The position numbers and the translations under genes were made by a program. A DNA stretch of 51,529 bases from Nemertoderma westbladi (taxonomy: Eukaryota > Animalia > Xenacoelomorpha): contig JAUCBJ010008239.1 in assembly GCA_032718475.1 (NCBI GenBank), forward strand, positions 1 to 51,529, in the 5' to 3' direction. Below are positions 12,450 to 35,177 of the stretch, piece by piece; position 1 is the stretch's first letter, and each line of letters starts with the position of its first letter. The notes beneath the pieces were generated by a model. The model searched no databases and was not told where the DNA came from. It saw only the letters and a program-made list of their open reading frames with translations.

Positions 12450-12571
12450 GAGGCGGAGCAACTTCGACAAGAAAACGAAGTTCTTAAGAAAAATTTGGTA
12501 GAACTTTATTACGCGGCTACAACGGAAATAGCAGAGCAAAGATCGAAAATCGCAGTGCTAGAACAATTACG
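12450..12571 (+). CDS. CASP8AP2: FLASH/CASP8AP2-like gene, exon 2 (N-terminal coiled coil, Lsm11-binding region in FLASH)
   Basis: Not in the ORF track. Acceptor TGTTTAG|GAG, donor TTACG|GTAAGT. Encodes EAEQLRQENEVLKKNLVELYYAATTEIAEQRSKIAVLEQLR, which aligns to FLASH [30 protein letters not shown] as I recall it. Ends in phase 2. Confidence 0.75.
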
Positions 12572-14726
12572 GTAAGTTTCTCGTCCATGGAACAATTACG
12601 GTAAGTTTCTCGCCCATGGAACAATTACGGTAAGTCCCTGTAACAATTAAGGTGAGTCCCTCGCCCTTGTCCGGAACAATTACGGTAAGTTCCTCGTGTC
12701 TGGAACAATTACGGTGAGTTCCTGTAACAATTACTTTAAGTTCCTCCTCCCTGGAACAATTACGGTAAGTTCCTCGTGAACCTCGTGTCTGGAACAATTT
12801 TGTTAAGTTTCTGGAACAATTACAGTAAGTTTCTGGAACAATTTCGTTAAGTTTCTGGAACAATTACGGTAAGTTCCACGTGCTTGGAACAATTACTGTA
12901 AGTCCCTCGTGTCTGGAACACTTACGGTAAGTTTCTGGAACAATTTCGTTAAGTTTCTGGAACAATTACTGTAAGTCCCTGCGTGAACCGCGTGTCTGGA
13001 ACAATTTCTTTAAGTTTCTGGAACAATTACGGTAAGTTCCTCGTGTCTGGAACAATTACGGTAAGTTCCTCGTGTCTGGAACAATTTCGTTAAGTTCCTG
13101 TAACAATTACGGTAAGTTCCTCCTCCCTGGAACAATTACGGTAAGTTCCTCGTGTCTGGAACAATTACGGTAAGTTCCTCGTGTCTGGAACAATTTCGTT
13201 AAGTTCCTGGAACAATTTCGTTAAGTTCCTGGAACAATTTCGTTAAGTTCCTGTAACAATTACGGTAAGTTCCTCGTCCCTGGAACAATTACGGTAAGTT
13301 CCTCGTGTCTGGAACAATTACGGTAAGTTCCTCGTGTCTGGAACAATTACGGTAAGTTCCTCGTGTCTGGAACAATTACGGTAAGTTCCTCGTGTCTGGA
13401 ACAATTACGGTAAGTTCGTCGTTCATGGAACAAATACGGTAAATCCCTCATCCATGGAACAATTACGGTAAGTTCCTCGTGTCTGGAACAATTACTGTAA
13501 GTTCCTGTAACAATTACGGTAAGTTCCTCCTCCCTGGAACAATTACGGTAAGTTCCTCGTGTCTGGAACAATTACGGTAAGTTCCTCGTGTCTGGAACAA
13601 TTTCGTTAAGTTCCTGGAACAATTTCGTTAAGTTCCTGGAACAATTTCGTTAAGTTCCTGGAACAATTTCGTTAAGTTCCTGTAACAATTACGGTAAGTT
13701 CCTCGTCCCTGGAACAATTACGGTAAGTTCCTCGTGTCTGGAACAATTACGGTAAGTTCCTCGTGTCTGGAACAATTACGGTAAGTTCCTCGTGTCTGGA
13801 ACAATTACGGTAAGTTCCTCGTGTCTGGAACAATTACGGTAAGTTCGTCGTTCATGGAACAAATACGGTAAATCCCTCATCCATGGAACAATTACGGTAA
13901 GTTCCTCGTGTCTGGAACAATTACTGTAAGTTCCTCGTGTCTGGAACAATTACGGTAAGTTCCTCGTGTCTGGAACAATTACGGTAAGTTCCTCGTGTCT
14001 GGAACAATTACGGTAAGTTCCTCGTGTCTGGAACAATTACGGTAAGTTCCTGGAACAATTTCGTTAAGTTCCTGTAACAATTACGGTAAGTTCCTCCTCC
14101 CTGGAACAATTACGGTAAGTTCCTCGTGTCTGGAACAATTACGGTAAGTTCCTCGTGTCTGGAACAATTACGGTAAGTTCCTCGTGTCTGGAACAATTAC
14201 GGTAAGTTCGTCGTTCATGGAACAAATACGGTAAATCCCTCATCCATGGAACAATTACGGTCAGTTCCGGTAATAATTACAGTAAGTTCCTCGTCCGGGA
14301 ATAATTACGGTAAGTTCCTGGAACAATTACAGTAAGTTCCTCGTGTCTGGAACAATTACGGTAAGTTCCGGTAACAATTACTGTAAGTTCCTCGTGTCTG
14401 GAACAATTACGGTAAGTTCCTCGTGTCTGGAACAATTTCGTTAAGTTCCTGGAACAATTTCGTTAAGTTCCTGTAACAATTACGGTAAGTTCCTCCTCCC
14501 TGGAACAATTACGGTAAGTTCCTCGTGTCTGGAACAATTACGGTAAGTTCCTCGTGTCTGGAACAATTACGGTAAGTTCCTCGTGTCTGGAACAATTACG
14601 GTAAGTTCCTCGTGTCTGGAACAATTACGGTAAGTTCGTCGTTCATGGAACAAATACGGTAAATCCCTCATCCATGGAACAATTACGGTCAGTTCCGGTA
14701 ATAATTACAGTAAGTTCCTCGTACGG
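12561..14726. repeat. Satellite of 29-bp and 22-bp units with higher-order structure (left part)
   Basis: Units GGAACAATTACGGTAAGTTCCTCGTGTCT and GGAACAATTTCGTTAAGTTCCT, roughly 80 units, each with an internal dyad GGAAC...GTTCC. Confidence 0.95.
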
Positions 14727-16646
14727 TAAATTGGAGAGATACGCCTATTCCTACTATCGGAAGAGACGGTAACAATACCTGCAATATCCTACTGTAAAGT
14801 TTGTAAATCAAATCATAAATCCGACCTTCTCACCAAAACAGTAAACCCCAAGTAAGCGAATATATTGCAGTATCGATCTCTTTTAACCGGTGAGGCAGAA
14901 AACAGTCTACGAGCAGACAAACTTCGATAAAACAAAATCCCGCGCAGCGAATCCTAAAATCAGGCTGACTCACTGACGGACTAAGAGGCTCGTATACTTT
15001 GCCGCGGTGTGATTTATATATGGTTGGGCAAAGGGACGCTAGCTAGGTACAGAGCAGATTTGGAGATGTCTAACTAGCGAGCAAAGTGCAGTAAGGACGA
15101 AAGTTAATTTTATATATTTCGAGGTGTAAATAATTTCTAACGCACGTGTGTTAATTCTGAACGGTCAAAGCAGTTTTGCTCCTTCACATATATAATTACT
15201 GGGTATGGTGTGCATTTTACGAATATTCTAATTTGTAACTTGTAGGTCCAATACTCACGAATGATAAGGTTCCTTCCCCTCTTGCGTATTTCCAGGACTC
15301 AAATTCAGGCATAAGGTTAATACTACGCCCAGAATTCGGCAATTTTAGGTACCAGGTCCCTGATACTAAGAAGAGATGTGTTAGTTTACTACTGTAGGCG
15401 TACGGGTACTAATAGCTATCCTGGCTCCTATCTAGAATTTTAGTCACCCAGGTAGTCCAGGTAACTTCCTATTAGGGCGTTGGCGGGGACACGGTAGATG
15501 TTAGTATATCCCTGATAGCCTCAATTTATTTGCGCCTAGCGTAAACTGCCCTACCGCCTGAACGGTACAATCCCAATTCAGGTGAAAACACAGCAACCCC
15601 TTTAGCCTACAAGTTCTGATGTAACGGACACCGTTGTACGGTAAATAGTCGCACACACACCTGTACTTAGCAAGAGTTAAGCGTACAGTTTGCTGCACCC
15701 TAACCAATGTGTATGCCTTGTACCGGTGTGCCTACGTCCTATCTGCGTACTAGTATCTGCTCTCTCTCTCTCTCCCCCCCGTAGGAATATGAAGGTCTAC
15801 TGCGGTTTTTCCTGAATCAAGACAGTACAGTCCCTATGATGTAATTTTAGGCTTGCAGCGTGTCACTACGTCTACCTTTGATCTTTTGGTCTTACACTTA
15901 GGTAGCAAGGATCGAACGCTGTCTAACCTTTCAGGCGATGGGCGAATAACTAGATGGTATTGCGGGTTGTCTCCCGTCTACATTCCCGTGATGTTCCCGT
16001 TCATTGCTGCGGCCCGATCTCTAGCTGGCCATCCTGTCCCTGAGTTTGTTCACCGTAGTGAAACCATATTAAAACAGATAGAAAAGGGCTGAGATGTGAC
16101 TAGTATTTCTGACTTTATTACAAAACATATAATAACTATTATACAATAAACAATGTAATCTGAAATAAGACAGAAAGCGAATGATGGAAATTGCAGTAGT
16201 GATTGAGAACTAATGAACGAATCGCACCTTTATATACTAAATTTGTGCCGCAATCAATCGAGAAAATTCTCGATTGTTCTATGGGTTCTAACAAGGTTTT
16301 AAAGATAGCTTATTGGTCCAGCTAATATATAACTTGCACGACATTGGTTACAATCAAATAACTACAGCCTTATTGGTACAGACAAATGCAATTAATTTGT
16401 AGCGGTTAATTTAAATGAGTTGAAATTCTGCACAAAAAATAATTCGCACTTACTAGGATTTGAACTCGATACCTACTATACTTATAATTTCCAACGCTCT
16501 ACCAACTGAGCTACTGAACCACTTGACCGATAGATGCATAATAGATAGAACCAATACTAATGAGAACTCAAAGCAATCTTTACAAAGTTAATTCGAATAA
16601 AATAAAATTTTGAAAATCCACGGCATTTAGGGAATATAATTCTATA
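14727..16646 (-). repeat. 3' LTR (1,920 bp)
   Basis: Direct repeat of 29774-31693 at a constant offset of 15,047. One substitution seen (15640 G vs 30687 A). Confidence 0.95.
16434..16520 (-). ncRNA. tRNA-derived Pol III-like unit inside the 3' LTR (U3)
   Basis: GGTTCAG-TAGCTCAGTTGGTAGAGC (A box/D arm)...GAGTTCAAATCC (B box)...TTTTTT terminator. Cloverleaf stems other than the D arm are poor. Confidence 0.55.
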
Positions 16647-16654
16647 CCGCTCCA
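16647..16654 (-). other. Short polypurine-tract candidate
   Basis: TGGAGCGG directly abuts the 3' LTR on the element strand. Confidence 0.5.
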
Positions 16655-17504
16655 TGAAAACAGGATATTATCGTGCATAAATATACGGTTTTCACCAATA
16701 ATCAATCAAACTATAGAATACTTAGGGCGTACTTACATATTTACAATTAAGTTTCAAACAATACTTCCTTTCTACGTAATGATTCGATACAAAATAATTA
16801 CAAATTCAAACTTTACGTATTTAAGGCTTTACTAAGTAAGTACAATATAAATCTAAATTAAATTCACCAATATAAATCTATTGCATCTCAAATATTGCAT
16901 AAATTCAAACAATTACAAATACAAATAAATGAAAACAATAAGAAAGGCTCGCGAGTCTTCCATCTACTATTGCATCTCAAATATTGCATAAATTCAAGTA
17001 ATTACAAATACTTTCGTACCTAAATGTAGATTGCATAAGTTTGGAATAATTACAAATATGAGTCTTTCTGAGCACAAAATTTTCTGTCTATAAAACTTTC
17101 TATTTCACTGTAAATACAAATACTGCTTATAAGATATAAATTGCATAATATTCGGAACAATATAAATTGCATAAGTTCAGAATAATATAAATTGCATAAG
17201 TTCGAAATAATCACGTAAATATAAGATATAAATTCTTACTAAATATAAATCTTACTAAATATAAGTCTTTACTTAAATATTAATATAAACTGCATAAGTT
17301 TAGAATAATATAAACCTTTGCATCTCAAATATGAAACATAAATCTTTCAAATATAAGTTCCTTCTAAATATAAACTTTCTAAATTTCATAAATTCGGAAC
17401 AATACAAATTGTATGAGTTTTCTAAATATAAAACATATAATTCAAAATAAATCACAAATCATAAGAAAGGCTCACGAGTCTTCCGTCCACCCTTGCCCTC
17501 CTTT

Positions 17505-18968
17505 TCATCGCTTAGTTGATCGAGCCCTGCCGCGTCCTCGAAAACTGCGCACAGGTGACTTTGCTCGCGATATGGGACTTGTGGGGCGAGTCACTGGTTT
17601 ACTTGGGACGTTGAGAGACGGTGCGACTATTTCCTCACAAATTCGTCTATTTGGCATCCCAAAACCTCGACCAATTCCTCGTGACCGATCAGTCGTCACT
17701 ACAGTTGGTAGAACGTCTGGGAACGCGTGAGAAGCGGACGACGCAGACCCAAGAGTAGCTTGCGCCCCCTGTTGATCAGCTGGTGTATGTCCCGATCCTC
17801 CTACTGGTTCTCTTGGAAGTGATACCGTATCCCGAGTAACTCGAATAGTCGGCTCAACTCCCTTGCGTTCTTCCACATTAATAATTTTCTTCAATTGTTG
17901 GCCCACTTTCTGGACCCGTATGATCCTACCCTGCCCGTCCTCCCGAGGGTGACGTGCAGACGGCGCAACCGGAGTGGCTGATATATTCGTCGCCTCTAGG
18001 ACCTCTTCTTCCTCGAATACGCTCGCTCGTATACGTTTATGGTAAAACGCGGCTCGGTACGCCCATGCGACGGTTAACCAAGCTCCTTTATTCCGCTTTT
18101 CGGTTCGGAAACGATCAAATTCACCATACGTGATACGATTTACGACTTTCTGAAAATTCCACGTGTTTTTGTTATCCGGGTGAATCTGTAACAGATACTC
18201 GCGCACCACTCGAAATCCGCTGTCGTGGGGCAAAATATCGACAACCTCGATAAGTTCGTCATACTGGGGCATAGCGGAGATATATCCTTCCGACATCATC
18301 GTCTGGGGATTTACCGCCCAAAATCCGAGATGCGCTCTCATCGGAAACCGTCTTCTTTGTGCCGATACATGTTCGTCGGCCAAATCTTCCCACTCATCAA
18401 ATAACTTCCTCACGAGTTTTACAGATTCATGTTCATAAGGTATGTCTCTTAGTTGGCATTCAGATGCTCGATGTCCCTTTATATTGCAGTAAGTACATTG
18501 AGCCATAAATCTCCAGCAAGTATAAAAGGTATGAGACCCTTGATCCCCACACCATCCACAGATTAGCTGAGTCGTAGTAATGTGCTTTCCACTGCACTTT
18601 GCCATATGATGTCCAGCGACGCCACATTTACTACACATCGTATTAGCAGGGTACCACACTCGTTCGTATATAAGATCTCCAATCGGTCGAGCGCTTCCTC
18701 CCATACTATAATCGTAATCATCTGGGTCTATGGGTTGGTAGGTTTCTGAAGGTTGTATACAAACTATAGCATCTGTTGCTTCAAGTTGTCGAATCTCCGT
18801 CTGAGATTTCTTCGGGAGGTTCCTTTCTATCTCAAGAAGTTCCTCTAAAGGATCGTCGGCGATCGTAGTAGTTACGTTGAAATCATCACCGAGGTGACCG
18901 ATAGGCGCGCGCGTCTGCCGTGATTCATCCGTAATTTCCACAATACGTTCTCCTTCATAAGGTAACAT
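17505..18968 (-). CDS. Retrotransposon accessory ORF3: triple CCHC zinc-knuckle protein with RG-rich tail (487 aa from first ATG)
   Basis: CSKCGVAGHHMAKC, CGWCGDQGSHTFYTC, CTYCNIKGHRASEC; C-terminal RSRGIGRG and RGRGRAR. No signal peptide or TM segment apparent. The frame is open back to about 19016. Confidence 0.8.
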   Translation of the reverse strand: MLPYEGERIVEITDESRQTRAPIGHLGDDFNVTTTIADDPLEELLEIERNLPKKSQTEIRQLEATDAIVCIQPSETYQPIDPDDYDYSMGGSARPIGDLIYERVWYPANTMCSKCGVAGHHMAKCSGKHITTTQLICGWCGDQGSHTFYTCWRFMAQCTYCNIKGHRASECQLRDIPYEHESVKLVRKLFDEWEDLADEHVSAQRRRFPMRAHLGFWAVNPQTMMSEGYISAMPQYDELIEVVDILPHDSGFRVVREYLLQIHPDNKNTWNFQKVVNRITYGEFDRFRTEKRNKGAWLTVAWAYRAAFYHKRIRASVFEEEEVLEATNISATPVAPSARHPREDGQGRIIRVQKVGQQLKKIINVEERKGVEPTIRVTRDTVSLPREPVGGSGHTPADQQGAQATLGSASSASHAFPDVLPTVVTTDRSRGIGRGFGMPNRRICEEIVAPSLNVPSKPVTRPTSPISRAKSPVRSFRGRGRARSTKR

Positions 18969-19621
18969 AGTTGTTGATGGTTCGAACACCTCGCCAATAT
19001 CGGTTCGGGATTTTCCTTATTCAAACGCATCGGAATCGCATTTCGTTGTTCGCGCATACAAGAACCGCATTGATAATAAAGTTTATAAACTGAAAATGCT
19101 TCTTTGGTTTCTCTATCGTCCCCTCGAGTTCGTCTGTAAAGATGCATTCCATCGAATTCATCACGTACCGCGGGCATAGGTTCGTGCGCCTTTAGGTATT
19201 GCATGGTATGATACAAACGACTAATTTCAGTATCGGGGTCTTCGCTAATGTCTCCCGTATCACACAAAGCATCGTACGGGTAAAGTTCGTTGAAGGTTTG
19301 GCGCAAACTTTCGATTCTTTCGTTCAATGCGTTTTGCCTTCTCTTTAATACATTCGAGTCATATTTAGTTCTCGCGAGTTTCGCTGTACTTTCCGATAAT
19401 TCTTTTATACCGAATATAGTATAATCCTTGGCTCCAAATCTTTCGAATGGCGCTGCTGCCTCCTCTTGGATATCATATCCCCACCTCGGCTCTCCTTGTA
19501 TCCCTTTCTCCATAATTAGAGGTGTAGTTACATAATCATTACTACTAGAGGGAATACAACAGAGTTTGTAGTTAGTTGTGAGGAGACGTGAGAGTTTCGT
19601 CTGCCCTTTGGGCTTCGACAA
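18872..19621 (-). CDS. Retrotransposon accessory ORF2, unknown function (first ATG 19513, 213 aa)
   Basis: Intact ORF with a helical/coiled segment (RRQNALNERIESLRQTF) and a possible CxxC...CxxH zinc site (CGSC...CSNH). Overlaps ORF3. Confidence 0.7.
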   Translation of the reverse strand: MSKPKGQTKLSRLLTTNYKLCCIPSSSNDYVTTPLIMEKGIQGEPRWGYDIQEEAAAPFERFGAKDYTIFGIKELSESTAKLARTKYDSNVLKRRQNALNERIESLRQTFNELYPYDALCDTGDISEDPDTEISRLYHTMQYLKAHEPMPAVRDEFDGMHLYRRTRGDDRETKEAFSVYKLYYQCGSCMREQRNAIPMRLNKENPEPILARCSNHQQLCYLMKENVLWKLRMNHGRRARLSVTSVMIST

Positions 19622-20174
19622 CGCTCTAACCTCCTACCCATAGCCTAAGATCTAGGGTTTCTTTAATGACACGCTGCTTCTTATCTAAAAATTTTTGCCG
19701 AAATAAAAACGAATTTGGGCTAAACTGGCTGTGAGTCTAAAATACTCACTTTTTGATCCCAAACTATTATCAGAAAATAAGCAGTCAAGAATTAGTAATA
19801 AATATAGGGGAGTCTATTTTGACGTAACTTATTGAAACAAGACCGTGTAAAATTTTAATTAAAATTTTAAGAAAGGCTCGCAAGTCTTCCTCTCTTGTTT
19901 CTCTAATTTTAAGTTCCACCCGACTGTACCCTGAAATCTATTCACTGGAGAAAATTTTAAAAATTTTTCAAATCCAAATGGATTGTCTAAAATTTCGAAA
20001 ATGTCTCAATATTGTGAGTTCCAAGTAGAATTCCATTTCTTATACCTACAAATCCCGCTCCTATGTGACACATAAGGGTACTACCCTCAATGTTCACATA
20101 TAAAGACAATGGAATTCTACCGCTGTCCTTAATACGGTGTACAGGTACGTGGAAATCTATTTGTAAACTCCTAA

Positions 20175-23100
20175 TTATTTACTAGTATTAGGTGGAGATT
20201 TGTAGTCTCCAGACTCGTTACGAGTCTCTTCAAGAAGTACGAGACGTTGAGTCGGTCTGTCTACTGTACGACCGTCAATTGTCCGTACTGTCACAGTTCT
20301 TGTCACTCCATCCATAGATGGATGTGTGGCTAAAATGACACCTGTTATCCAGAAGCGTCTTTTTAGATTCACTTCTGCCAACAGCACGTGATCTCCCGGC
20401 TTTAATGCGCGGGTGTTATTGTACCAGTTTGTTCTGGCAGAAATAGAGGGCAAATAATGGTTTTGCCATATTTCCCAGAATTTGTTAGCTAGTAATTGCG
20501 TGATTTTCCACGCTTTTCTCCCGTAACTATCGCTTTCCATTGGAATGGAAAGCGGCGTCAAAGTCGTCGGTGCCTGCATTAGCAGGTGTGCCGGTGTCAA
20601 AGCAAACTGGGATTGTTTGTCATCGGGTACTAATACTATTGGTCTAGTATTTAGTATTGCCTCGATTTCAACAAACAATGTTGTCAGTTGGTCGTCTGTT
20701 AATATGTGGTTTACTGGAATGACCTTTGCCATGGCTGTCTTTATAGATCTAATCAATCTCTCCCAGACTCCGCCTCTCCAAGGACTATCTGGAGGATTGA
20801 ACTTCCAAACAATCTTGTGAGGTTGCAGTTCGTTTGAGATTTGATCATGATCTAATTTCTTAAAGGCTCTAGCAATCTCATTCCGAGCACCAACAAAGTT
20901 TGTCCCTTGGTCTGAGTACAAGCATTTTACTAATCCGCGTCTAGCGATAAATCGCCGTAGTGCTAGTATAAACGCGTTGGTGGAAAGATCCATCACACGT
21001 TCAATGTGAACTGCCCTACTGGACATACATGTGAAAATCAGTCCCCAGCGTTTTACTAGTATACGTCCACGTTTAGTATGTATGGGACCAAAGCAATCAA
21101 TTCCAGTCTCTGTAAAAGGTGGTCTGAATGCTTGAAGTCGTGCTTGTGGTAGTTCACTCATTTCTTGGGTACCTATTCTAGAATGTACCTTTTTACAAAT
21201 AATACACGTACGTGTCACTGAACTTAATGCTTTACTGGGTCTAATTAATACAAATCTAGTACGTAAGTAGGAAAGACAGTGGTGTCTTCCAGCGTGTTTC
21301 AGATGTAAATGTGCGTCCAGTATCATTGCACGTTGTAGTTCGTGGTGTTGCGGTATTATTATTGGGTACCTAAAGTTCGTGTTAAAGTCAATGTTTTGAA
21401 GCCGAGATTTATGACAAATTAAGCCATTATAAATAATCGGACTCCAACTCAGTATCGGTGACGACTTGATTGGTTGACCTTGATTTATAGATGTGAATTC
21501 GCGCGCGAAATATCGCAGTTGGTAATGGCGAATTAATTTAATCTCACACCTGTCAATCTCAGCCAATGTAAGTCGACGTGTGAAGTCACGTTTGCCTTTA
21601 ACGTATTGTACAAAACGTACAATCCACGCTAATTTTCGGCAAGCGTTTGACCAAGAATCTGTTAGGTTTACAATACGGTCGACATAAGTATTTGTGACGT
21701 CATCAGGTAAGTCAATGGAGAACTTGGAAGGTTTCGAATTACTAGAAGGGCCCACGGGTCCGCCGGTAAGTATTCCCTTGTTGACTGTTGATCCGTCCGG
21801 GTCTACAAGTAATTTGTCCTTCTTTGTCTTCTTACCTTGATTGTCGGTACTTTGTAAGTCGATCGTTAATGGTGGTTTGAACTCTATGGGGTCAGCAGGT
21901 TTCGGTAAACTTATTTTTCTGCCGACATTAATCCCAGGTCTCACCACAGGTTGTAAGTTCGGTATGTCTCTTGAGCGCAAAGTAACACCTGTATTTACAT
22001 TAGCGTAGGTACTACCCACATCTGCAATACATGAGGTTTCACCATGCTTATGGTTGCCCAAGTGTGTCAAAATTGGTAGTTTGTCAATACAAGGCCGCTC
22101 CAATAGGGAAACTGCGGCTTTATTGTTAGTCAATACATTACTAGTGTCTAGTCGACTGTCTAGTAGTGTGTCTGGCGATACGTCTGGTAACGTATCTGGT
22201 TGTTTGTCACTAGAAGGCCGCTCCAATAGGGAAACTGCGGCTTTACTGTTTGTCAGTGTGTTACTAGCGTCTGGTGGGACATTTTGTGATATGTCTGGCA
22301 AAATGTCTGGTTGGCTGTCTAGTAACATGTCTGGTTGACCGTCTGGCGATATGTCTGGTGTAGAAAGGCTCGCAAGTCTTCCTCTCTTGACCTTTGAAGT
22401 TATATCCTTCCATTTCGCCTTCGGTTTTTTCTTGAGTTTCGCCGCCGTCGTCCTTTTCTTTGTCTTCCCCTTTTTTGGTTTCTTGATTTCGGCGTCCTTA
22501 GGAATGGTGTTGGACTTGTTGTCGTATAACGGAGGCCAATCTTGTGTCGATTTCTGCAAGAACTGGGGTCCGTGTTGCCAAAACTCTTTGTTCTCCGGTT
22601 TACAGAATTCCTCAGGCATCATTCCTCGCGACGCAATATCAGCTGGGTTTTGTGGTCCGGGACAATGTCGCCAATCCTCTTTTATCGAACGGTCTAGAAT
22701 CTCTGCGCGACGGTTAGCTACGAATGTCTTGAATTCGAGTGTGTCGTTGTTTATGTAAAATAAAACCAACGTCGCGTCAGTCCAATAAAATATCTGTAAA
22801 CTCGACTGTAGTTCTGTCTGTATGAGGTTCACGATGGTGGTTGACAGGGTCGCGGCTTGTAGCTCGGCTCGTGGTGTCGTCATATACTTAGTAGGCATGG
22901 TCTTAGCCTTGGAAGTAATGAGCGAAACATCGAACTCGTCTGATTCTACTTGTCTGCGCAAATACGCTGCCACACCAAACCCGTTGTCACTGGCGTCAGA
23001 AAAACAGTGTAGTTCCAAGTTGTCAGGAAATGTACTCTGTAATGGAAAGTAAACCCTGGGTATGGAATAATCCTCTAACGAAGACAATTCCGCCTCCCAG

Positions 23101-26100
23101 GTCTTCCATAAGTCCACTTGATCTGATGAGATCGGCTCGTCCCACGTTAGTCCATCCTTCCATATACTGCGCATATAAATGCGGGCTTGCAGTATTACTG
23201 GACTGATGAATCCTAACGGGTCGAACAATCGGCTCAACTTTGACAAGCATGATCTCTTGGTCAGTGTGTTTCCTTGACTGTCCAGTCTCACCTTCACTCG
23301 AAAGTTGTCTGTGTTTGGGTCCCAAAAGAGCCCCAACACCTTAGTCGTCGGTAGTGGTTCGAACTCTAGGTCTATGTCACCACCTCCACGCTCAGTAGTT
23401 CCGAATGAGTCAACTAATTCGGCACTGTTTGAGGCGAATTTGGTGAGGTTAAAACCTCCGCTCGCCAAGCAGTCCCGTAATTGATGTGCTACTGTTGTAG
23501 CACGTTCTACTGTGTCGCAACTCTGTAGTCCGTCATCAACGTAAAAGTCACGTTCTACAATTCTAATTATCTCTGGGTCATACAGATGTTTCTGATCTCT
23601 AGCGGCTTGCTTCAAGGCGTACATCGTACAATTCGGGCTGTCTCTGGCACCGAAAACGCGAACTTGCATTTGGTAAGTCGCTGGTGGTAGACTTAAGTCC
23701 CCTTCCGGATACCAGAGAAACCGCAAACTGTCTCTGTCTCGCTCTAACGCTTTCACTTGGTGAAACATCGCTTCAACGTCGCAAGTAAAGGCTACTTGAC
23801 GCTGACGGAAGCGCATAATCACCCCCATAAGATAATTATTCATGTTCGGTCCATCCATCAACTCACTATTGAGGGACATTCCCTCAAACAGAGCCGCACA
23901 GTCATTGACTACGCGTACTTTATCTGGTTTGTCGGGATGTCTCACATAGTGATGTGGCAAGTAGTACGTCTGGTCTGTCACTCGCTCCGGGTTAGTCATT
24001 CGGATAGCGTATCCCTTCGTCAAATACGTCTCCATCTGAGTGTTGTACTGCAGATGGGCTTTCTCGTCCTTTAATAGACGTTGTCGGATTGAGTGTAGAC
24101 GTCTTAAAGCCAGTGGGTAGTTATTTATAAGTTTAGGACTTTGGCTACGCCATAACATACCCACCTCGTAATGTCCGTCCTCCGTCTGTCGGATAGTATC
24201 CTCCATGATCTTTAGAGATTGTTTCTCCTGTTCCGACATACAAGGGTCGTAGCTACCAGGTTCAGCTGTATCTTGTTCTAACCACCTGATAGTCTTCTCC
24301 GTTAATTCTTTGTCCAAGGCGGCTTGTTCCAACTGATGAATTTTCAACGCGTCATCGTCGATATCGATGGGCACTGTTGAAGTTATTGGGGTAGGTAGAC
24401 TCGCAAGCCTATCATCTGTCGTCGATGGAATCTCTAGCTGATTCGTCTTCTCCCCAAGTTCTAAACTCACCTTGTGGATTAGCTGCTCCTTGTGACTTAT
24501 CATACTAGTTACACGTCTGTGATGTTTTGTCGACTGTAGCGTAGTATGGTTCACGTCGTGTGAAAAGGAATGAATTGAGTTTGTAGTCAATAAACTACAT
24601 GTACTCTGTACGTCGTCTTCCTCGTCACTTACGTCCAGTGTGCGCACAGGCGCTCGAGTATACCACCCTATCGGCGTTCTGCAGGCGTATGCGTTTCCTG
24701 CTACAACTGCCGATGGTCTGGTTTCCCACACCTGATGTAGGTTGAATTGGTCCGTCCCGATCAGCATTGCTACCGATCTATAATTGACAGGACATTCGGG
24801 TACACCAAGGTGTCTGAAATACTTACGGTCCTCCAGAGATTGTTCCGGCACTGGACCTAGTAGGTTACTAAAGTCCTTCGTGGCCGCAAAGGTTAGATCT
24901 CTAAAGGGCAACAAAGACCTCTCCCTCTCGCTGTGTTGCGATTTTGGAAGAAGAGAGTCTAAGTCCAACTTAACTCGTGTCACTGGTATTGCACGCTGTC
25001 CGTGCATACTACTTACTGTATAACTGACGTGCTTACCTTGTCTAAGATCTGTTACGACGTCAGCTATCTTTTCATCTACGTAACTGTGAGATGAGGCTGA
25101 GTCTAGAATCGCGTAAATCCTCTTACTCCCTTTTGTGCCAGTAACTTTAATCGGGATTACACTGAATCCCTTCAGTTGGTCAGTGGTCAGGAGCGCGATT
25201 GACGGTTGTTCGTCTCCATTTGAATATTCGTCGTCTTCTGATTCTTCGTCCGACGATCCGGATTGTTCTGAAAAGCAATCCTCTATATGGGTCACGAAAG
25301 TCGGAGTTGTTTTCGATTCCCGTTTTCGGTAAGCCGCATCACATCTCGCTGCTGCTTCCGGGTGTTCCCTGGCGAAGCGTTTCGTCGGCGTGTGGCTGTC
25401 TGTGTGGAGCAGACCGTCGTGGTTGCGTCCACAGGATGGACAAGTGTCGGTATTTGGGCAATCCTTACGGACGTGTCCGTGTTGCGTACACCGCCAACAA
25501 GAGTCCAGTGGCCGTATCTGCAGCCGTCGTTCTTCTGAGTTCAACTCGCGAAATTGTCGACAACCCCGTAACTTGTGACCAATATACCGCTTACCTAAAT
25601 GTTCGCAGTATTGGCAGCCGTTGAAGTCGGCGCTGAGTTGCTGTCTCGTCTGTTTTGTCCCAATGGGCGCAGATACTCTATTACCGTCTGAGAATTGTCG
25701 TGATTCCGTCGGTGTGGCGTAAGTGGCCGTCTTTGTGGATGTTGTCTGGGGTTTTTGTCGGTTGGAGGATGGCAGTGTGATCCCTTCTGCCACGATGTGC
25801 TGGTCGGTATAGTTAGATCGAGTTTCTACTACCGCCTCCCTGGATATTAAAAGGTACACATCTTCTAATTTCAGGAATCCTCCTCGCTCCTCTCGCTGAT
25901 ATTCGACCTTCCTCCACTCCCGACGAAGTCGATGGTGGAGTCGTCCTATTATCTTTAATAAAACGGTAGGGGTATTTCCGTAATCAAGTTGTCCAATTGA
26001 TCTTAAGGTAGTGATAGCGTTCTTGATTTCGTCAGCTAGTTTTAGTAAGTCGACGGGTTTAGTGATAGCCCCTCCCTTACAGAGTTCTTCTATTACTGAC

Positions 26101-28961
26101 CTGGCCATACTCACTGTACCTCCGTATATCGAAGTCAAACGATCGTACGCTAGTTCGAAAGCGTCTGGTACACCGACGAAAGTCTCCGCCAAACGTTTAG
26201 GTTCTCCTGACAACGTTTGGAGCAGGTAATTGAACTTCTCCCGTGATGTAAAGGCGCACACGGCGATCTGGGATTCGATATAGTCTACGAAGGTATGCCA
26301 GTGTTTTGAGCTACCGGAGAACTTCGGTGGTTGTTGTACCGGCAATCCCTGTCTGGCTGCGAATTTCGCTATCTCCTCGGCAACGTTCAGAGTTTCGCGT
26401 CCTTGGTTGGTAGTCTGGTTGATGTTCTCCCTTCTAGGCGCTTTTCCCTGATACGATGTGGGGTTTGAAGGTACCGGTCTTTGTGGTCCCTTCGGGTGTC
26501 TATTGTGTTCGAATTCGGAATTTCTCGAACTGTCGGTGTAACCTTCCTCCAGACGTTCCTCAATCCGGGCCAACTTGTTGACAATGTCGGCGAACTGTTG
26601 CGCACCGATCGCGCCCGCTGGTGGTAACGCCTTCTGTGTCGGTGTATTCTGTGGTGGATTATCTGCAAAAGAGTTGTCTGAACGCTCGCGTTTATATTCA
26701 TCGGCCGCCCCCGTTCTAAATACCTCGCGTTTCGGGTAATCCGATTCGCTCGAAGTACTACTATCATCTGGATATGGTGGTCGACGTGCTCGCGTTCGTT
26801 GCGTCGTTCGAATTCTAACGGCTCGTTTCGGAACATCGTCCACTGATCTCCGTTGTTCGGTAGGCTCACAAGTCTTCCTCGAAGTCGTAGATTGCGATGT
26901 AAACTGGTTGAACGGTCGCGTCTCCACTGTTCTCCGTTGTTCGGTAGGCTCACAAGTCTTCCTCGAAGTCGTAGATTGCGATGTAAACTGGTTGAACGGT
27001 CGCGTCTCCACTGTTCTCCGTTGTTCGGTAGGCTCACAAGTCTTCCTCGAAGTCGTAGATTGCGATGTAAACTGAACCGGTGGGCGAATGACAGCATTTG
27101 AAACCGCTGGCCTTGTTGGTCGAAACGTCATTGGGTAAGCGTAATGTGTAACGGGTTTTGGTGTCAAAGGTGGACTCACCTGTTTTGTCGTCAGTAGTGC
27201 AGGTCCGACTAATAAACTACTACGATCTGTAATCGGTGGGTTACTTACCTTGACTCTCGGAATAGGCGACGACGTTGCTCTTGGCGGTATAAACTCGTTC
27301 GGAATAACAAACCTGTGTTCCGTCGCACCATGGATAGGAGAAATATCACTACTACCCGCAATCGAAACAGGTTCCTTAGTCGTAACCGGTGCAAACATAT
27401 GAGTTACCTGTGGGAATCGTTGACACACGTCTTTTACTAATTGTCGTTCCCGTCCGGGTGCTCCTACGCTTCCTTCCTTCTTCCGTTCCTGAATTTGGCG
27501 ATGTCTTACCTCTAACTGGTCCAAATCATGTCCGTCGCGAGATCTCATCGATCGATCGCGGGCTAGAAGATCCAGATTTTCCTTAGTTTCGGCTAATTCT
27601 CTCGCCCTCTTCTCAAGTTCGAAACGAAGTTTAACTTCCTTTTCTCGTTGTTCCGTTTGTTGTTGTTGCGCCTCGAACTCTGCTTGTCGTATCGCTTGTT
27701 GGGCTTTTATTTGCCGTGTCTTCATCTCGACTCTGGCTTCCGAAACTACTCTTTGTCGCTCTAACTCTGCCGCAGCCGTTTGTCGCTCTAACTCTGCCGC
27801 AGCCGTTTGTCGCTCTAACTCTGCCGCAGCCGTTTGTCGCTCTAACTCGGCCGCTGCCGCTGCCGTTTGTCGCTCTAACTCGGCCGCTGCCGCTGCCGTT
27901 TGTCGCTCTAACTCGGCTGTTGCCGTTCGTTGCGCTAACTCGGCCGCTGCCGCTTGTTGGGCAATGTCCAACTCTAACCTTTCCATTTCGGCCGCTTCGA
28001 GTTCGGCTTGTTCCTGCAGATGAGAGATTCTCGCTACATTCGCAACACGTATTTTCTCTTCCTCTACTGCTGTTTGTATCATTAGAAGTTGAGCTTGTTC
28101 TTCTATCTCGTGTTGCTGTCTGTAGAACTGCTGCTGTTGTCGAGCAACTTCTGACGTGACTATACTTCCTTCGCAGATTTCGCTACGAATACTTACCAAT
28201 GATTGATTTAGTATTCCCGGTGCCGATTCGATTTGTGCGAATGAAGTTTCCCTCGTGTATTCCGGCACGGTTTCCAAATCGCCGACGTCTTCGCCGCACA
28301 TGCGTAAGTGGTCCGTCAGATGTTTCAATTGTCCATCCAGTCGGTACAATTCCTGTTCTTCCTCGGGTTGTAATAATTCGTCCGAAACTGACTCACCTAA
28401 CAACTGGTCCGCTTGTTCCTGTTGTATCTGTCTAATCGTCGACTTAAACTGAATCAGTTTCTCTCTAGTGATCATTAGTTTCTCGAGGATTCTAAGTTGA
28501 GTATCCATGTCCTGTCTCTGTCTAGCTAGATCTTGTAGGCCAACTAGATTATCTACGGACTTATATACTTTACTCTGTACTCTAACCTGGAGGGTGTAGA
28601 ACTCGAATCGAGACATCGGAGCGGTCAACCCGTCTAATATGCGTTGGCCTTCTCCAATACTCCTGGTTATATGCGCCATGTATCCTCCGACGCTTCTAAC
28701 CACACTTTCTGTGCTTCCTGCTGAACTTACCAATTCCGTTTCCCTGTATCTAGGTTGCGGAACAGTTAGAAAGTCCTCGGTCCTGCCGTCGCCTCGTACT
28801 ACGGCATCCGGTACTCCCGTTGGATGTACTGGTGACGCACACGGTGTAGGTTCGGTAGGCTCGCGAGTCTTCCCCTGTGGTTCTTCCGCTGCTGACTTAT
28901 CCGCGTCACATGAGTCATAGTCGGTTTGTGTATTTTTCGTATAGTCTTGTTTGTCACTCAT
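20175..28961 (-). CDS. gag-pol: BEL/Pao Gag-Pol polyprotein, 2,928 aa (Gag-PR-RT-RNaseH-IN)
   Basis: Gag PKFSGxxxxWxxF (DUF1759-type); three BEL knuckles (CQYC..H..C, CWRCTQHGHVRKDC, CPSCGRNHDGLLH); protease AILDSAS; RT YLPHH, CDVEAMFHQV, FYVDD; RNase H FSDAS, PRAELQAA, WTD, NPADIASRG; integrase HHCC, GIDCFGP, SDQGTNF, GGVWERLI. Confidence 0.97.
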   Translation of the reverse strand: MSDKQDYTKNTQTDYDSCDADKSAAEEPQGKTREPTEPTPCASPVHPTGVPDAVVRGDGRTEDFLTVPQPRYRETELVSSAGSTESVVRSVGGYMAHITRSIGEGQRILDGLTAPMSRFEFYTLQVRVQSKVYKSVDNLVGLQDLARQRQDMDTQLRILEKLMITREKLIQFKSTIRQIQQEQADQLLGESVSDELLQPEEEQELYRLDGQLKHLTDHLRMCGEDVGDLETVPEYTRETSFAQIESAPGILNQSLVSIRSEICEGSIVTSEVARQQQQFYRQQHEIEEQAQLLMIQTAVEEEKIRVANVARISHLQEQAELEAAEMERLELDIAQQAAAAELAQRTATAELERQTAAAAAELERQTAAAAAELERQTAAAELERQTAAAELERQTAAAELERQRVVSEARVEMKTRQIKAQQAIRQAEFEAQQQQTEQREKEVKLRFELEKRARELAETKENLDLLARDRSMRSRDGHDLDQLEVRHRQIQERKKEGSVGAPGRERQLVKDVCQRFPQVTHMFAPVTTKEPVSIAGSSDISPIHGATEHRFVIPNEFIPPRATSSPIPRVKVSNPPITDRSSLLVGPALLTTKQVSPPLTPKPVTHYAYPMTFRPTRPAVSNAVIRPPVQFTSQSTTSRKTCEPTEQRRTVETRPFNQFTSQSTTSRKTCEPTEQRRTVETRPFNQFTSQSTTSRKTCEPTEQRRSVDDVPKRAVRIRTTQRTRARRPPYPDDSSTSSESDYPKREVFRTGAADEYKRERSDNSFADNPPQNTPTQKALPPAGAIGAQQFADIVNKLARIEERLEEGYTDSSRNSEFEHNRHPKGPQRPVPSNPTSYQGKAPRRENINQTTNQGRETLNVAEEIAKFAARQGLPVQQPPKFSGSSKHWHTFVDYIESQIAVCAFTSREKFNYLLQTLSGEPKRLAETFVGVPDAFELAYDRLTSIYGGTVSMARSVIEELCKGGAITKPVDLLKLADEIKNAITTLRSIGQLDYGNTPTVLLKIIGRLHHRLRREWRKVEYQREERGGFLKLEDVYLLISREAVVETRSNYTDQHIVAEGITLPSSNRQKPQTTSTKTATYATPTESRQFSDGNRVSAPIGTKQTRQQLSADFNGCQYCEHLGKRYIGHKLRGCRQFRELNSEERRLQIRPLDSCWRCTQHGHVRKDCPNTDTCPSCGRNHDGLLHTDSHTPTKRFAREHPEAAARCDAAYRKRESKTTPTFVTHIEDCFSEQSGSSDEESEDDEYSNGDEQPSIALLTTDQLKGFSVIPIKVTGTKGSKRIYAILDSASSHSYVDEKIADVVTDLRQGKHVSYTVSSMHGQRAIPVTRVKLDLDSLLPKSQHSERERSLLPFRDLTFAATKDFSNLLGPVPEQSLEDRKYFRHLGVPECPVNYRSVAMLIGTDQFNLHQVWETRPSAVVAGNAYACRTPIGWYTRAPVRTLDVSDEEDDVQSTCSLLTTNSIHSFSHDVNHTTLQSTKHHRRVTSMISHKEQLIHKVSLELGEKTNQLEIPSTTDDRLASLPTPITSTVPIDIDDDALKIHQLEQAALDKELTEKTIRWLEQDTAEPGSYDPCMSEQEKQSLKIMEDTIRQTEDGHYEVGMLWRSQSPKLINNYPLALRRLHSIRQRLLKDEKAHLQYNTQMETYLTKGYAIRMTNPERVTDQTYYLPHHYVRHPDKPDKVRVVNDCAALFEGMSLNSELMDGPNMNNYLMGVIMRFRQRQVAFTCDVEAMFHQVKALERDRDSLRFLWYPEGDLSLPPATYQMQVRVFGARDSPNCTMYALKQAARDQKHLYDPEIIRIVERDFYVDDGLQSCDTVERATTVAHQLRDCLASGGFNLTKFASNSAELVDSFGTTERGGGDIDLEFEPLPTTKVLGLFWDPNTDNFRVKVRLDSQGNTLTKRSCLSKLSRLFDPLGFISPVILQARIYMRSIWKDGLTWDEPISSDQVDLWKTWEAELSSLEDYSIPRVYFPLQSTFPDNLELHCFSDASDNGFGVAAYLRRQVESDEFDVSLITSKAKTMPTKYMTTPRAELQAATLSTTIVNLIQTELQSSLQIFYWTDATLVLFYINNDTLEFKTFVANRRAEILDRSIKEDWRHCPGPQNPADIASRGMMPEEFCKPENKEFWQHGPQFLQKSTQDWPPLYDNKSNTIPKDAEIKKPKKGKTKKRTTAAKLKKKPKAKWKDITSKVKRGRLASLSTPDISPDGQPDMLLDSQPDILPDISQNVPPDASNTLTNSKAAVSLLERPSSDKQPDTLPDVSPDTLLDSRLDTSNVLTNNKAAVSLLERPCIDKLPILTHLGNHKHGETSCIADVGSTYANVNTGVTLRSRDIPNLQPVVRPGINVGRKISLPKPADPIEFKPPLTIDLQSTDNQGKKTKKDKLLVDPDGSTVNKGILTGGPVGPSSNSKPSKFSIDLPDDVTNTYVDRIVNLTDSWSNACRKLAWIVRFVQYVKGKRDFTRRLTLAEIDRCEIKLIRHYQLRYFAREFTSINQGQPIKSSPILSWSPIIYNGLICHKSRLQNIDFNTNFRYPIIIPQHHELQRAMILDAHLHLKHAGRHHCLSYLRTRFVLIRPSKALSSVTRTCIICKKVHSRIGTQEMSELPQARLQAFRPPFTETGIDCFGPIHTKRGRILVKRWGLIFTCMSSRAVHIERVMDLSTNAFILALRRFIARRGLVKCLYSDQGTNFVGARNEIARAFKKLDHDQISNELQPHKIVWKFNPPDSPWRGGVWERLIRSIKTAMAKVIPVNHILTDDQLTTLFVEIEAILNTRPIVLVPDDKQSQFALTPAHLLMQAPTTLTPLSIPMESDSYGRKAWKITQLLANKFWEIWQNHYLPSISARTNWYNNTRALKPGDHVLLAEVNLKRRFWITGVILATHPSMDGVTRTVTVRTIDGRTVDRPTQRLVLLEETRNESGDYKSPPNTSK

Positions 28962-29043
28962 TTCGGTAGTTGTAAGTCAAGTGAAGTGAGTGTCAAAGTA
29001 TCGAGTTTACCGTATTTGTATAAAACGGTACTAATTACAGTCA

Positions 29044-29168
29044 TATAAAATTAGCCTACCGGCCGATTTTATAGCAGATGGATAAAATTAGCCTAAACGG
29101 CCAATTTTACAGCAAATAAATGTCACGGAATAAGTATATAATAAAATTAGCCTAGCGGCCAATTTTAT
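29044..29168 (-). other. Three tandem hairpins in the 5' leader (packaging/dimerisation signal candidate)
   Basis: Three copies of ATAAAATTAGCC-(4-5 nt)-GGCCRATTTTA just upstream of the gag ATG. Confidence 0.55.
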
Positions 29169-29762
29169 AACAAATAAATCAGATAACGATATGCGTTATC
29201 AAAAGGTAAATTAAATACAATAATACGGACTAATTCAGCAATGAACAAAGAAATCGTACGGAATGCATAAATACTTGAGACAGTGGAACCCACAATAATT
29301 TTAACTAAATACGGTAATGCCTAACTTATTTATGCAACTTTTCGAACTCACCCACTCCAATAATTCTCCAGAAAAACAGATTCCCAGATACAAACCGAAC
29401 GTGAACCTTTCCGTTTTTTAACGTTGCGGACGAAACGCGATTTTCCCAACCAAAGTTGTTGAGTTATCTATCTCCCAAACTTGCTAAACACGGTCTTGCT
29501 CCCGTTACAGTCTAGAAAATGAGTTCTGAATCCTGAAAAACAAAAGAGTTAGGTTTTACTTTACGAAAAATTTTGTACCGGTACAATATGGTATTTAAAC
29601 CCTTTTAAACACCGGTATTCAATTCCAAAAAATATTTTACACGCGGTTCAAATCAAATTTTATTTCAAAAAATTAGCACTTAGCTAATCAAATACAAAAT
29701 TTTACCTCAAAATACAAAATTTTCAAATAACTTTAGTCCTACCGAACCGTAGTTCAGTAAAA

Positions 29763-29773
29763 CATATTCCTAC
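29763..29773 (-). other. Primer-binding-site position, non-tRNA type (GTAGGAATATG)
   Basis: Abuts the 5' LTR, lacks TGG, and is the exact reverse complement of LTR positions 30828-30838. Confidence 0.6.
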
Positions 29774-31254
29774 TAAATTGGAGAGATACGCCTATTCCTA
29801 CTATCGGAAGAGACGGTAACAATACCTGCAATATCCTACTGTAAAGTTTGTAAATCAAATCATAAATCCGACCTTCTCACCAAAACAGTAAACCCCAAGT
29901 AAGCGAATATATTGCAGTATCGATCTCTTTTAACCGGTGAGGCAGAAAACAGTCTACGAGCAGACAAACTTCGATAAAACAAAATCCCGCGCAGCGAATC
30001 CTAAAATCAGGCTGACTCACTGACGGACTAAGAGGCTCGTATACTTTGCCGCGGTGTGATTTATATATGGTTGGGCAAAGGGACGCTAGCTAGGTACAGA
30101 GCAGATTTGGAGATGTCTAACTAGCGAGCAAAGTGCAGTAAGGACGAAAGTTAATTTTATATATTTCGAGGTGTAAATAATTTCTAACGCACGTGTGTTA
30201 ATTCTGAACGGTCAAAGCAGTTTTGCTCCTTCACATATATAATTACTGGGTATGGTGTGCATTTTACGAATATTCTAATTTGTAACTTGTAGGTCCAATA
30301 CTCACGAATGATAAGGTTCCTTCCCCTCTTGCGTATTTCCAGGACTCAAATTCAGGCATAAGGTTAATACTACGCCCAGAATTCGGCAATTTTAGGTACC
30401 AGGTCCCTGATACTAAGAAGAGATGTGTTAGTTTACTACTGTAGGCGTACGGGTACTAATAGCTATCCTGGCTCCTATCTAGAATTTTAGTCACCCAGGT
30501 AGTCCAGGTAACTTCCTATTAGGGCGTTGGCGGGGACACGGTAGATGTTAGTATATCCCTGATAGCCTCAATTTATTTGCGCCTAGCGTAAACTGCCCTA
30601 CCGCCTGAACGGTACAATCCCAATTCAGGTGAAAACACAGCAACCCCTTTAGCCTACAAGTTCTGATGTAACGGACACCGTTGTACAGTAAATAGTCGCA
30701 CACACACCTGTACTTAGCAAGAGTTAAGCGTACAGTTTGCTGCACCCTAACCAATGTGTATGCCTTGTACCGGTGTGCCTACGTCCTATCTGCGTACTAG
30801 TATCTGCTCTCTCTCTCTCTCCCCCCCGTAGGAATATGAAGGTCTACTGCGGTTTTTCCTGAATCAAGACAGTACAGTCCCTATGATGTAATTTTAGGCT
30901 TGCAGCGTGTCACTACGTCTACCTTTGATCTTTTGGTCTTACACTTAGGTAGCAAGGATCGAACGCTGTCTAACCTTTCAGGCGATGGGCGAATAACTAG
31001 ATGGTATTGCGGGTTGTCTCCCGTCTACATTCCCGTGATGTTCCCGTTCATTGCTGCGGCCCGATCTCTAGCTGGCCATCCTGTCCCTGAGTTTGTTCAC
31101 CGTAGTGAAACCATATTAAAACAGATAGAAAAGGGCTGAGATGTGACTAGTATTTCTGACTTTATTACAAAACATATAATAACTATTATACAATAAACAA
31201 TGTAATCTGAAATAAGACAGAAAGCGAATGATGGAAATTGCAGTAGTGATTGAG

Positions 31255-31423
31255 AACTAATGAACGAATCGCACCTTTATATACTAAATTTGTGCCGCAA
31301 TCAATCGAGAAAATTCTCGATTGTTCTATGGGTTCTAACAAGGTTTTAAAGATAGCTTATTGGTCCAGCTAATATATAACTTGCACGACATTGGTTACAA
31401 TCAAATAACTACAGCCTTATTGG
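31255..31423 (-). promoter_or_regulatory. Candidate Pol II promoter in the LTR: three CCAAT boxes, TATA box, Inr
   Basis: CCAAT near 31422, 31393 and 31363, TATATAAAG at 31283-31275, TTAGTT at 31260-31255. An AATAAA lies about 95 nt downstream. Confidence 0.5.
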
Positions 31424-31480
31424 TACAGACAAATGCAATTAATTTGTAGCGGTTAATTTAAATGAGTTGAAATTCTGCAC

Positions 31481-31567
31481 AAAAAATAATTCGCACTTAC
31501 TAGGATTTGAACTCGATACCTACTATACTTATAATTTCCAACGCTCTACCAACTGAGCTACTGAACC
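31481..31567 (-). ncRNA. tRNA-derived Pol III-like unit inside the 5' LTR (U3)
   Basis: Same sequence as 16434-16520: A box, B box, T6. Confidence 0.55.
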
Positions 31568-31693
31568 ACTTGACCGATAGATGCATAATAGATAGAACCA
31601 ATACTAATGAGAACTCAAAGCAATCTTTACAAAGTTAATTCGAATAAAATAAAATTTTGAAAATCCACGGCATTTAGGGAATATAATTCTATA

Positions 31694-31794
31694 TACGGGA
31701 ATAATTACGGTAAGTTCCTGGAACAATTACAGTAAGTTCCTCGTCCCTGGAATAATTACGGTAAGTTTCTGAAACAATTACAGTAAGTTTCTGG
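31694..31794. repeat. Continuation of the 29/22-bp satellite after the retrotransposon
   Basis: Same GGAACAATTACRGTAAGTT units resume immediately after the TSD. Confidence 0.9.
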
Positions 31795-32171
31795 AGAGTT
31801 GGGTTCATTGCCATAAGCTGTTTAGAGAATATTGCTTTAGTTTACGTAACACAAAGTTAGAAGCGAGCTAATTTCGTAATATCTGATATACAAAATCATG
31901 TTTCTAGTAGTGTGCCTAATGGTGTCTCACACCCTGGTGTGTGTCGTAATCTCTTTGAAATGATACTTCTTATTTTTTTGAATACCGTAACTCAACCCCC
32001 GGTCATTGAAAATAAGAGATTATGATTGAACAATGAACAACCTTTGATATTATGACATAATTTTTATTTTTTATTTGTTTATTGTATATTGTTTATTTAT
32101 TTGTGAATTTATCGTGAATCGGATTTGATAATATGGATTAGGAGATTATTACGGTTGGTGGAATAGCCATA

Positions 32172-34921: not shown

Positions 34922-35177
34922 ATTGAAAAATTATAGAGACCAAAAGTGACCAAAACAAAGTTAATTGACGTATATTACGGCCAACAGGCCTTTATTCAAC
35001 GTCTAAAGTCAGGTTTATTTATTTAAACACCGAACCGACGGACTGACAGCTGTCAGTCCGTCGGTTCGGTGTTTAAATAAATAAACCTGACTTTAGACGT
35101 TGAATAAAGGCCTGTTGGCCGTAATATACGTCAATTAACTTTGTTTTGGTCACTTTTGGTCTCTATAATTTTTCAAT
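34922..35177. repeat. Perfect spacer-less palindrome, 2 x 128 bp
   Basis: Centre GACTGACAG|CTGTCAGTC between 35049 and 35050. Arms are complementary out to 34922/35177. Confidence 0.95.

Follow-up and report, generated by a model that had tools for sequence, protein, structure and literature searches.

The question raised by this locus is how a long terminal repeat (LTR) retrotransposon could begin reverse transcription when no tRNA-binding site follows its 5' LTR. The stretch analysed, hereafter the window, comprises 51,529 nucleotides of Nemertoderma westbladi (assembly GCA_032718475.1, contig JAUCBJ010008239.1, positions 1 to 51,529) and carries on its (-) strand a BEL/Pao element of 16,967 bp. 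The characters described below point to an intact, recently inserted BEL/Pao element with TA ends and without a tRNA primer site, which is probably primed by its own RNA in the manner of Tf1, a reading drawn from sequence. A first-pass annotation of this DNA had singled out the TA ends; taken alone these are of moderate interest, and the absent tRNA primer-binding site (PBS), which that annotation missed, is the stronger feature.

The International Committee on Taxonomy of Viruses (ICTV) profile of the Belpaoviridae gives an 18-nt tRNA-Arg/Gly PBS and priming by host tRNA, and terms replication poorly understood (PMC8742986). Self-priming has been described for Tf1/sushi elements and Tcn1 and proposed for TAR, Houba and Osr-1 (excerpts of PMC6317226, PMC4600332 and PMC6934838); Tf1 takes the first 11 nt of its RNA as primer, and cleavage by RNase H has been demonstrated for it (excerpt of PMC7175516). 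A literature search, with most subscription journals and Repbase reports outside its reach, found no paper on BEL/Pao self-priming. If the present reading is correct, self-priming extends to a third LTR superfamily, beyond Ty3/gypsy (published) and Ty1/copia (proposed), and bears on whether hairpin priming is ancestral (PMC3601003). LTR finders requiring TG...CA ends or a tRNA PBS would miss such elements.

The primer-binding site and its complement in the LTR

Features of the 5' end of the element that are needed for the argument are as follows.

29736..29763 (-): predicted 12-bp hairpin right behind the PBS (fold)
29763..29773 (-): 11-nt PBS directly behind the 5' LTR, without spacer and without TGG
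29774..31693 (-): 5' LTR, 1,920 bp (LTR alignment)
29780..29786 (-): arm, in U5, of a second stem of 7 bp, predicted to pair with 30816-30822 (fold)
30572..30577 (-): AATAAA lying 3' of the primer, on the side where a poly(A) site would be required for self-priming
30828..30838 (-): putative self-primer at LTR nt 856-866, fully complementary to the PBS
30843..30854 (-): segment 5' of the primer, able to pair with the leader behind the PBS (fold and loose contig ends)
31276..31283 (-): TATA-like box, some 445 nt 5' of the primer
31481..31575 (-): tRNA-like stretch in U3 with a T-run, boxes read by eye
15781..15791 (-): second occurrence of the 11-nt primer sequence, within the 3' LTR (element nt 15903)

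No tRNA-type PBS with TGG was found behind the 5' LTR, the first TGG lying at +147. The 11 nt at offset 0 behind this LTR are exactly complementary to LTR nt 856-866. Such a complement at offsets 0-5 appeared in 22 of 5,000 Markov-shuffled LTRs, and in 1 of 200 shuffled leaders and 11 of 13,117 interior 11-mers. By the criterion in the excerpt of PMC6317226, a self-primer pairs over 10 bp or more, with the first pair 0-5 bp past the LTR; the window element has 11 nt at offset 0. In the predicted fold of the 1,125-nt leader, 10 of the 11 primer-PBS pairs had probabilities of 0.90-1.0, and a two-strand fold added the 7-bp stem beyond an internal loop. As in Tf1, Tf2 and Tj1 (Tf1/sushi) and in TAR, Houba and Osr-1, the PBS complements 11 nt of the element's own LTR, a second stem lies nearby and a tRNA site is missing; unlike those elements, which belong to Ty3/gypsy and Ty1/copia respectively, the window element is a member of another superfamily.

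Other copies were read from public contigs of organism A (runs X1-X5, three studies, X1 and X2 being one sample and X5 perhaps an RNA run); contig ends are cited among the loose ends listed. Very high summed contig depths and a long list of variants indicate that organism A harbours many, polymorphic copies of the family. At 30836 a common variant amounted to 20% in X1, 24% in X4 and 100% of one contig in X3, and from it a change at its pairing partner in the primer-PBS duplex, 29765, was predicted before the second stretch was examined. There, T>C at 29765 was the only common substitution among the three sites listed in 171 nt, with 26, 23, 31 and 24% of summed contig depth in X1, X2, X3 and X4. 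Duplex energies were -13.7 kcal/mol for the reference, -9.5 for the primer change alone, -13.7 for the PBS change alone and -15.6 for both. Pairing is kept through sequence change, in these unphased partner variants as well as in 9 of 13 relatives. Because the family is high-copy, has natural variant pairs and shows CA as well as TA ends, observation alone could test where the primer comes from and which ends are tolerated.

In two X2 contigs a loose end prolongs the complement over LTR nt 838-851 (by eye), and the window element can form the same upstream extension with a bulge; as both allow it, the RNA that pairs probably extends further 5' than the 11-mer. One X1 contig of 1,033 nt has a different interior, and its junction falls exactly at 29763, where the PBS ends on the side away from the LTR.

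In the tRNA-like stretch in U3 (31481-31575) the A-box, the B-box and the T-run were picked out by eye. ARAGORN and Rfam searches of the LTR gave nothing credible and did not call this stretch. Helenus terminal-repeat retrotransposons in miniature likewise carry tRNA-like RNA polymerase III promoter boxes within the LTR, but according to the excerpt of PMC10886601 they are short, non-autonomous and tRNA-primed, whereas the window element is coding and its stretch lies in U3 and was identified by eye only. Summed depth in X3 was 20-40x higher at 31292-31623 than in the middle of the LTR, which may mean that another repeat family shares this stretch. A 701-nt X3 contig (29945-30646) showed 91 differences, and X3, a run guessed to be of DNA, has 92 T>C places clustered there; these are A>G on the element strand, which looks like ADAR-hyperedited LTR RNA copied back into DNA.

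Related loci and the proposed course of priming

A total of 79 related loci were compared, 62 of them without a readable LTR/PBS junction. Among the 13 non-tRNA loci with a locatable LTR, nine carried an LTR complement of 11-15 nt, one of them contiguous and eight across a GT-AG intron of 76-164 nt (L003, L006, L009, L013, L016, L023, L057 and L060). None of the four tRNA-type loci had an LTR complement. In the first set of loci the complement was present in 5/5 non-tRNA loci (0/200 shuffles each) and 0/2 tRNA-type loci; in the second it reached at least 11 nt in 5/9 non-tRNA loci, two of them repeated from the first set, and 0/3 tRNA-type loci, with reverse-strand controls of at most 10 nt. 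The complement of L023 was scored without a null, and L079 was tested for a contiguous match only. An AATAAA lies downstream of the primer in all five spliced relatives examined and in the window element, and none was found in L030. The spacer between LTR end and PBS is 2-4 nt in eight of the nine complement-bearing relatives and 0 in L060, whose end is inferred, and in the window element.

These relatives bear on an alternative that we regard as unlikely, namely that LTR and leader pair in a structural role (in dimerisation, in packaging or as a translation switch), with a host tRNA fragment or some other small RNA serving as primer. For Copia elements, priming by half-tRNAs in the absence of TGG has been published (excerpts of PMC10886601 and PMC6317226). 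Pairing in the window element, however, stops exactly at the LTR boundary, and the partner variant sits in the element's own LTR. Moreover, nine relatives keep the complement in different letters, and a single host RNA would not follow them.

The complement, its position, the partner variants, the AATAAA downstream, the missing tRNA site and the missing spacer were read directly. For priming by the element's own RNA, the transcript would start upstream of LTR nt 856 and carry the 11-mer; by analogy with Tf1, the RNA would fold back and the 11-mer would pair with the PBS. Cleavage behind nt 866, for which the element's RNase H is the probable agent as in Tf1, would free a 3'-OH placed directly against the last LTR base, which would then be extended. 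From a 3'-OH in that position, minus-strand DNA would start at the LTR end itself.

Several observations weigh against this course. The first primer-PBS pair has a probability of only 0.23 in the leader fold, and the predicted 12-bp hairpin (29736-29763) competes with a 12-bp extension of the primer duplex. Some 445 nt separate the 11-mer from the sole clear TATA box upstream, and a further AATAAA falls in that interval; unlike in Tf1, the RNA start may lie upstream of the 11-mer. As to the variants, the PBS change by itself creates a G-U wobble and leaves the duplex energy at -13.7 kcal/mol, so that it is neutral, the X3 shares disagree (100% of one contig at 30836 and 31% at 29765), the two sites are unphased and contig depth is a poor measure of frequency. 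Four non-tRNA loci (L011, L017, L037 and L038) showed no complement above control level, and the tree does not put the window element inside the clade that holds the self-complementary relatives. A further difference from Tf1 is that most relatives would need splicing to form the primer.

Part of these data would also suit a primer supplied in trans, that is, a separate short LTR transcript of the element, spliced in the relatives, with its 3' end at nt 866. The distant TATA box and the extra AATAAA, the ability of the pairing to extend upstream of the 11-mer and the relatives' complement, which forms only across the intron, speak for it. We nevertheless consider it very unlikely, given that both the single-molecule fold and the 7-bp stem lying 3' of the 11-mer fit an uncut precursor and that no transcript-ending signal was seen at nt 866. 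Priming by the element's own folded RNA is preferred here.

Boundaries and TA ends

The boundaries of the element are set by the following features.

14269..14323 (+): uninterrupted satellite unit matching the insertion site (flank match)
14722..14726: left copy of the target-site duplication (TSD), TACGG (LTR comparison, flank reading, empty site)
14727..16646 (-): 3' LTR, 1,920 bp, TATAG...ATTTA (LTR alignment)
16647..16655 (-): short stretch like a polypurine tract (PPT), abutting the 3' LTR (comparison with relatives)
31694..31698: right copy of the TSD, TACGG (flank reading, LTR comparison)

The two LTR copies (14727-16646 and 29774-31693) are 1,920 bp each, align without gaps and differ by a single substitution (15640/30687), a divergence of 0.05% with a Poisson upper bound of 0.29%. 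Both read TATAG...ATTTA on the element strand, and each boundary is fixed because both copies diverge at that point. The 5-bp TSD stands on either side. The empty satellite unit matches the flanks in 50 of 50 letters (25+25) around a 5-nt core, which equals the TSD except for one letter; at the ten other spacings tried (0-10 nt) the flank match had 5-19 mismatches. In run X3 at least three contigs depart from the LTR exactly before 29774 and at least three exactly behind 31693, and an X5 contig departs at 31693 into the PPT side. The first-pass annotation had derived the same boundaries from LTR identity, TSD and empty site, had counted one substitution between the LTRs and had described a very young, intact BEL/Pao element; the X3 departures at both positions add to the former, the substitution count stands, and LTR identity, Pfam domains and empty site support the last.

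That the boundaries are wrong, or that an assembly artefact hides TG...CA ends, is scarcely credible. In its favour, one letter of the TSD is different in the empty unit, and one X4 contig departs 2 nt further in, at 29772; against this, the LTR divergence points, the TSD, the 50/50 flank match and contigs of separate studies agree, and the idea is largely refuted.

The window element thus does not have the canonical TG...CA ends. As had been annotated, TA...TA stands in their place, and TA ends recur at other insertion sites; among the loose ends listed, indel variants of the LTR end still finish in TA. Copies with TG...CA ends or other boundaries had been named as the observation that would tell against this picture. 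One X1 contig does have an LTR ending in CA on the same PBS as the window element, while the boundaries recur in X3.

In related loci the U3 start was readable in 14 of 79 and was TG in 14/14 and TA in 0/14, so that the double TA is particular to the lineage of the window element. The U5 end, readable in 12 loci, was TA in 3/9 and CA in 6/9 non-tRNA loci and CA in 3/3 tRNA-type loci; the U5 ends of L003, L006 and L060 were inferred from the primer complement itself. The TA-ended non-tRNA relatives L013, L023 and L030 are TG...TA, with 2-4-nt spacers. L013 shows these ends with a 5-bp TSD, and L057 and L070 are without TSD.

TATAG is one change away from the TGTAG of the relatives, and for this reason a substitution is preferred at U3. 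The TA ends could otherwise be retained spacer letters, which is plausible at U5, where relatives have a TTA spacer, and disfavoured at U3. In relatives 2-4 extra letters lie between the PPT-like stretch and TG, which the window element is without.

An integrase with altered end specificity had been proposed in the annotation. The departure of the ends is real; judged from the CA-ended X1 contig and the TG...TA relatives, specificity looks relaxed for the second-last base, not switched, because the terminal A is constant across the family of the window element and its relatives and the base before it varies. A full switch from CA to TA, which would be compatible with self-priming, is unlikely: TA at both ends, its absence from the U3 start of the 14 relatives and the long branch of the element would suit it, and the CA-ended contig on the same PBS, several TA-ended length variants, the TG...TA relatives and the ordinary, intact HHCC and D-D-E motifs of the integrase would not. 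A search of PDB sequences with the integrase gave no match.

Blunt integration is a known mode. In the window element the geometry, with no spacer at either end, may hint at blunt cDNA ends, in which case integrase might join the terminal A untrimmed with a 5-bp stagger and tolerate T or C before A. A link between blunt ends and the drift to TA is put forward only tentatively on this sequence reading. TA ends do not depend on blunt ends, because L013, L023 and L030 are TA-ended and yet keep 2-4-nt spacers, and this counts against tying the two together. It is conceivable, though doubtful, that the lineage dropped two constraints: with an internal, intron-less LTR primer abutting the LTR end, cDNA would be blunt and integration would proceed without 3' processing, freeing both ends to change from CA to TA, and the element, lacking a spacer, would represent the extreme of a self-priming system that is assembled by splicing and widespread in BEL/Pao elements of marine animals.

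Non-TGCA ends occur on other mobile LTR elements, such as AtRE1 (TA...TA), TARE1 (TA...CA), Tos17 (TG...GA) and Zam-type errantiviruses (AGT...). The first three are plant elements and the last are insect Gypsy elements, whereas the window element is BEL/Pao; TA...TA ends are published for AtRE1 (excerpt of 10.1101/137141), and no published case of non-canonical BEL/Pao ends was found in the literature search. Positions 29774-29815 hold the LTR end with an old tandem duplication of the end/PBS junction, in which 9 nt resembling the PBS recur at 29793-29801. In X1, X2 and X4 there are contigs that join the leader directly to the inner junction copy, and hence shorter-ended subfamilies exist.

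Coding region, affiliation and other features of the window

The interior of the element comprises the following features.

16656..17504 (-): 3' untranslated stretch rich in AT (25% GC) and containing decayed repeats
17505..19016 (-): accessory open reading frame (ORF) 3, 487 aa from the first ATG (motif reading, homology searches)
18872..19633 (-): accessory ORF2, 213 aa from the first ATG, overlapping ORF3 in another frame
20175..28961 (-): single gag-pol ORF, 2,928 aa (Pfam and motif reading)

The gag-pol ORF contains DUF1759, a zinc knuckle, a protease (DSAS), a reverse transcriptase (YVDD), Peptidase_A17, an integrase and DUF5641. Motifs of protease, reverse transcriptase, RNase H and integrase follow one another in Gypsy-like order, those of the RNase H region falling at Peptidase_A17. 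PF03564, PF05380 and PF18701 exceed the Pfam cut-offs, and RVT_1 is weak (E 0.04). In agreement with the annotation that all ORFs are intact, gag-pol and the two 3' ORFs are open. In-frame tandem repeats (22074-22357, 26839-27074 and 27752-27957) enlarge gag-pol to 2,928 aa, against 1,616-2,302 aa in the relatives listed, and there is one long insert between RNase H and integrase.

The reverse transcriptase-RNase H (RT-RH) region is 39-44% identical to the 120 relatives listed, all with the Pao domain PF05380; named relatives among the matches listed are from molluscs, echinoderms, corals, amphioxus and fish. Affiliation to the Belpaoviridae is indicated by the single gag-pol ORF, the order protease, reverse transcriptase, RNase H and integrase with Pao-type Pfam domains, BEL/Pao proteins as the nearest in RT-RH, and the LTRs, PPT and 5-bp TSD. 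Unlike the family profile, the element has no 18-nt tRNA-Arg/Gly PBS and is filed as a variant, not a typical member; it also differs in its TA...TA ends, its 17 kb with 1.9-kb LTRs and its two non-env 3' ORFs. Membership of the Tf1/sushi chromoviruses was ruled out by the Pao-type domains and the absence of a chromodomain match.

Trees comprised BEL/Pao rows only, with no outgroup from another superfamily. In the 34-row tree the element formed a long branch of its own and fell outside both the pair L043/L049 (support 0.98) and the large clade to which most relatives belong (0.998); its position relative to L079 and P0007 was not resolved. An earlier tree, without six short-match loci and the duplicate L019, placed the element with support of only 0.13-0.57. 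A phylogeny of reverse transcriptase and integrase had been suggested in the first-pass annotation; the trees gave a separate long branch among BEL/Pao rows, and none of the named clades (Pao, BEL, Tas, Suzu, Sinbad, Dan, Flow and Sailor) was assigned.

ICTV gives elements of 4.2-10 kb and LTRs of 0.2-1.2 kb for the family (PMC8742986), and a BEL/Pao survey of 2011 reports a median LTR of 383 bp, a maximum of 2,427 bp and elements of up to 22.8 kb (PMC3118150, supplement 9). The LTRs, annotated as unusually long, are in the upper tail of published sizes yet inside their range. With its 17 kb and 1.9-kb LTRs the element falls within that survey, and its size was therefore not counted as new.

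ORF3 has three zinc-knuckle-like motifs, two of them canonical CCHC, and no transmembrane stretch; the highest 19-residue hydropathy of the 3' ORFs is 0.47 and 0.75. It had no match among 6,863 candidates and none in the 79 related loci, and against 1.84 billion representatives only two, at knuckle level, to other retroelement proteins. Its Atlas scores were all < 0.9, with no family beyond knuckle level. An env function, as in env-bearing semotiviruses, was ruled out for lack of a membrane anchor or fusogen: ORF3 is not an env because it has zinc knuckles instead, no membrane stretch and only knuckle-level matches. The Pfam search with ORF2 gave nothing under E 0.05.

The host site is a 22/29-bp satellite, followed by a 38-bp satellite of about 58 copies; together the two cover 12561-14696, 31698-31795 and 32172-34359. 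A perfect 128-bp inverted repeat without spacer (34922-35177) is a fold-back element or an assembly artefact. Fragments with RVT_1 matches at 39745-40617 (-) and 5237-5992 (+) are likely pieces of long interspersed nuclear elements. Long open frames at 42143-48394 and 36613-38418 (+), of 2,083 and 601 aa and without Pfam match, are probably large exons of a host gene, the former with a 21-bp tandem repeat.

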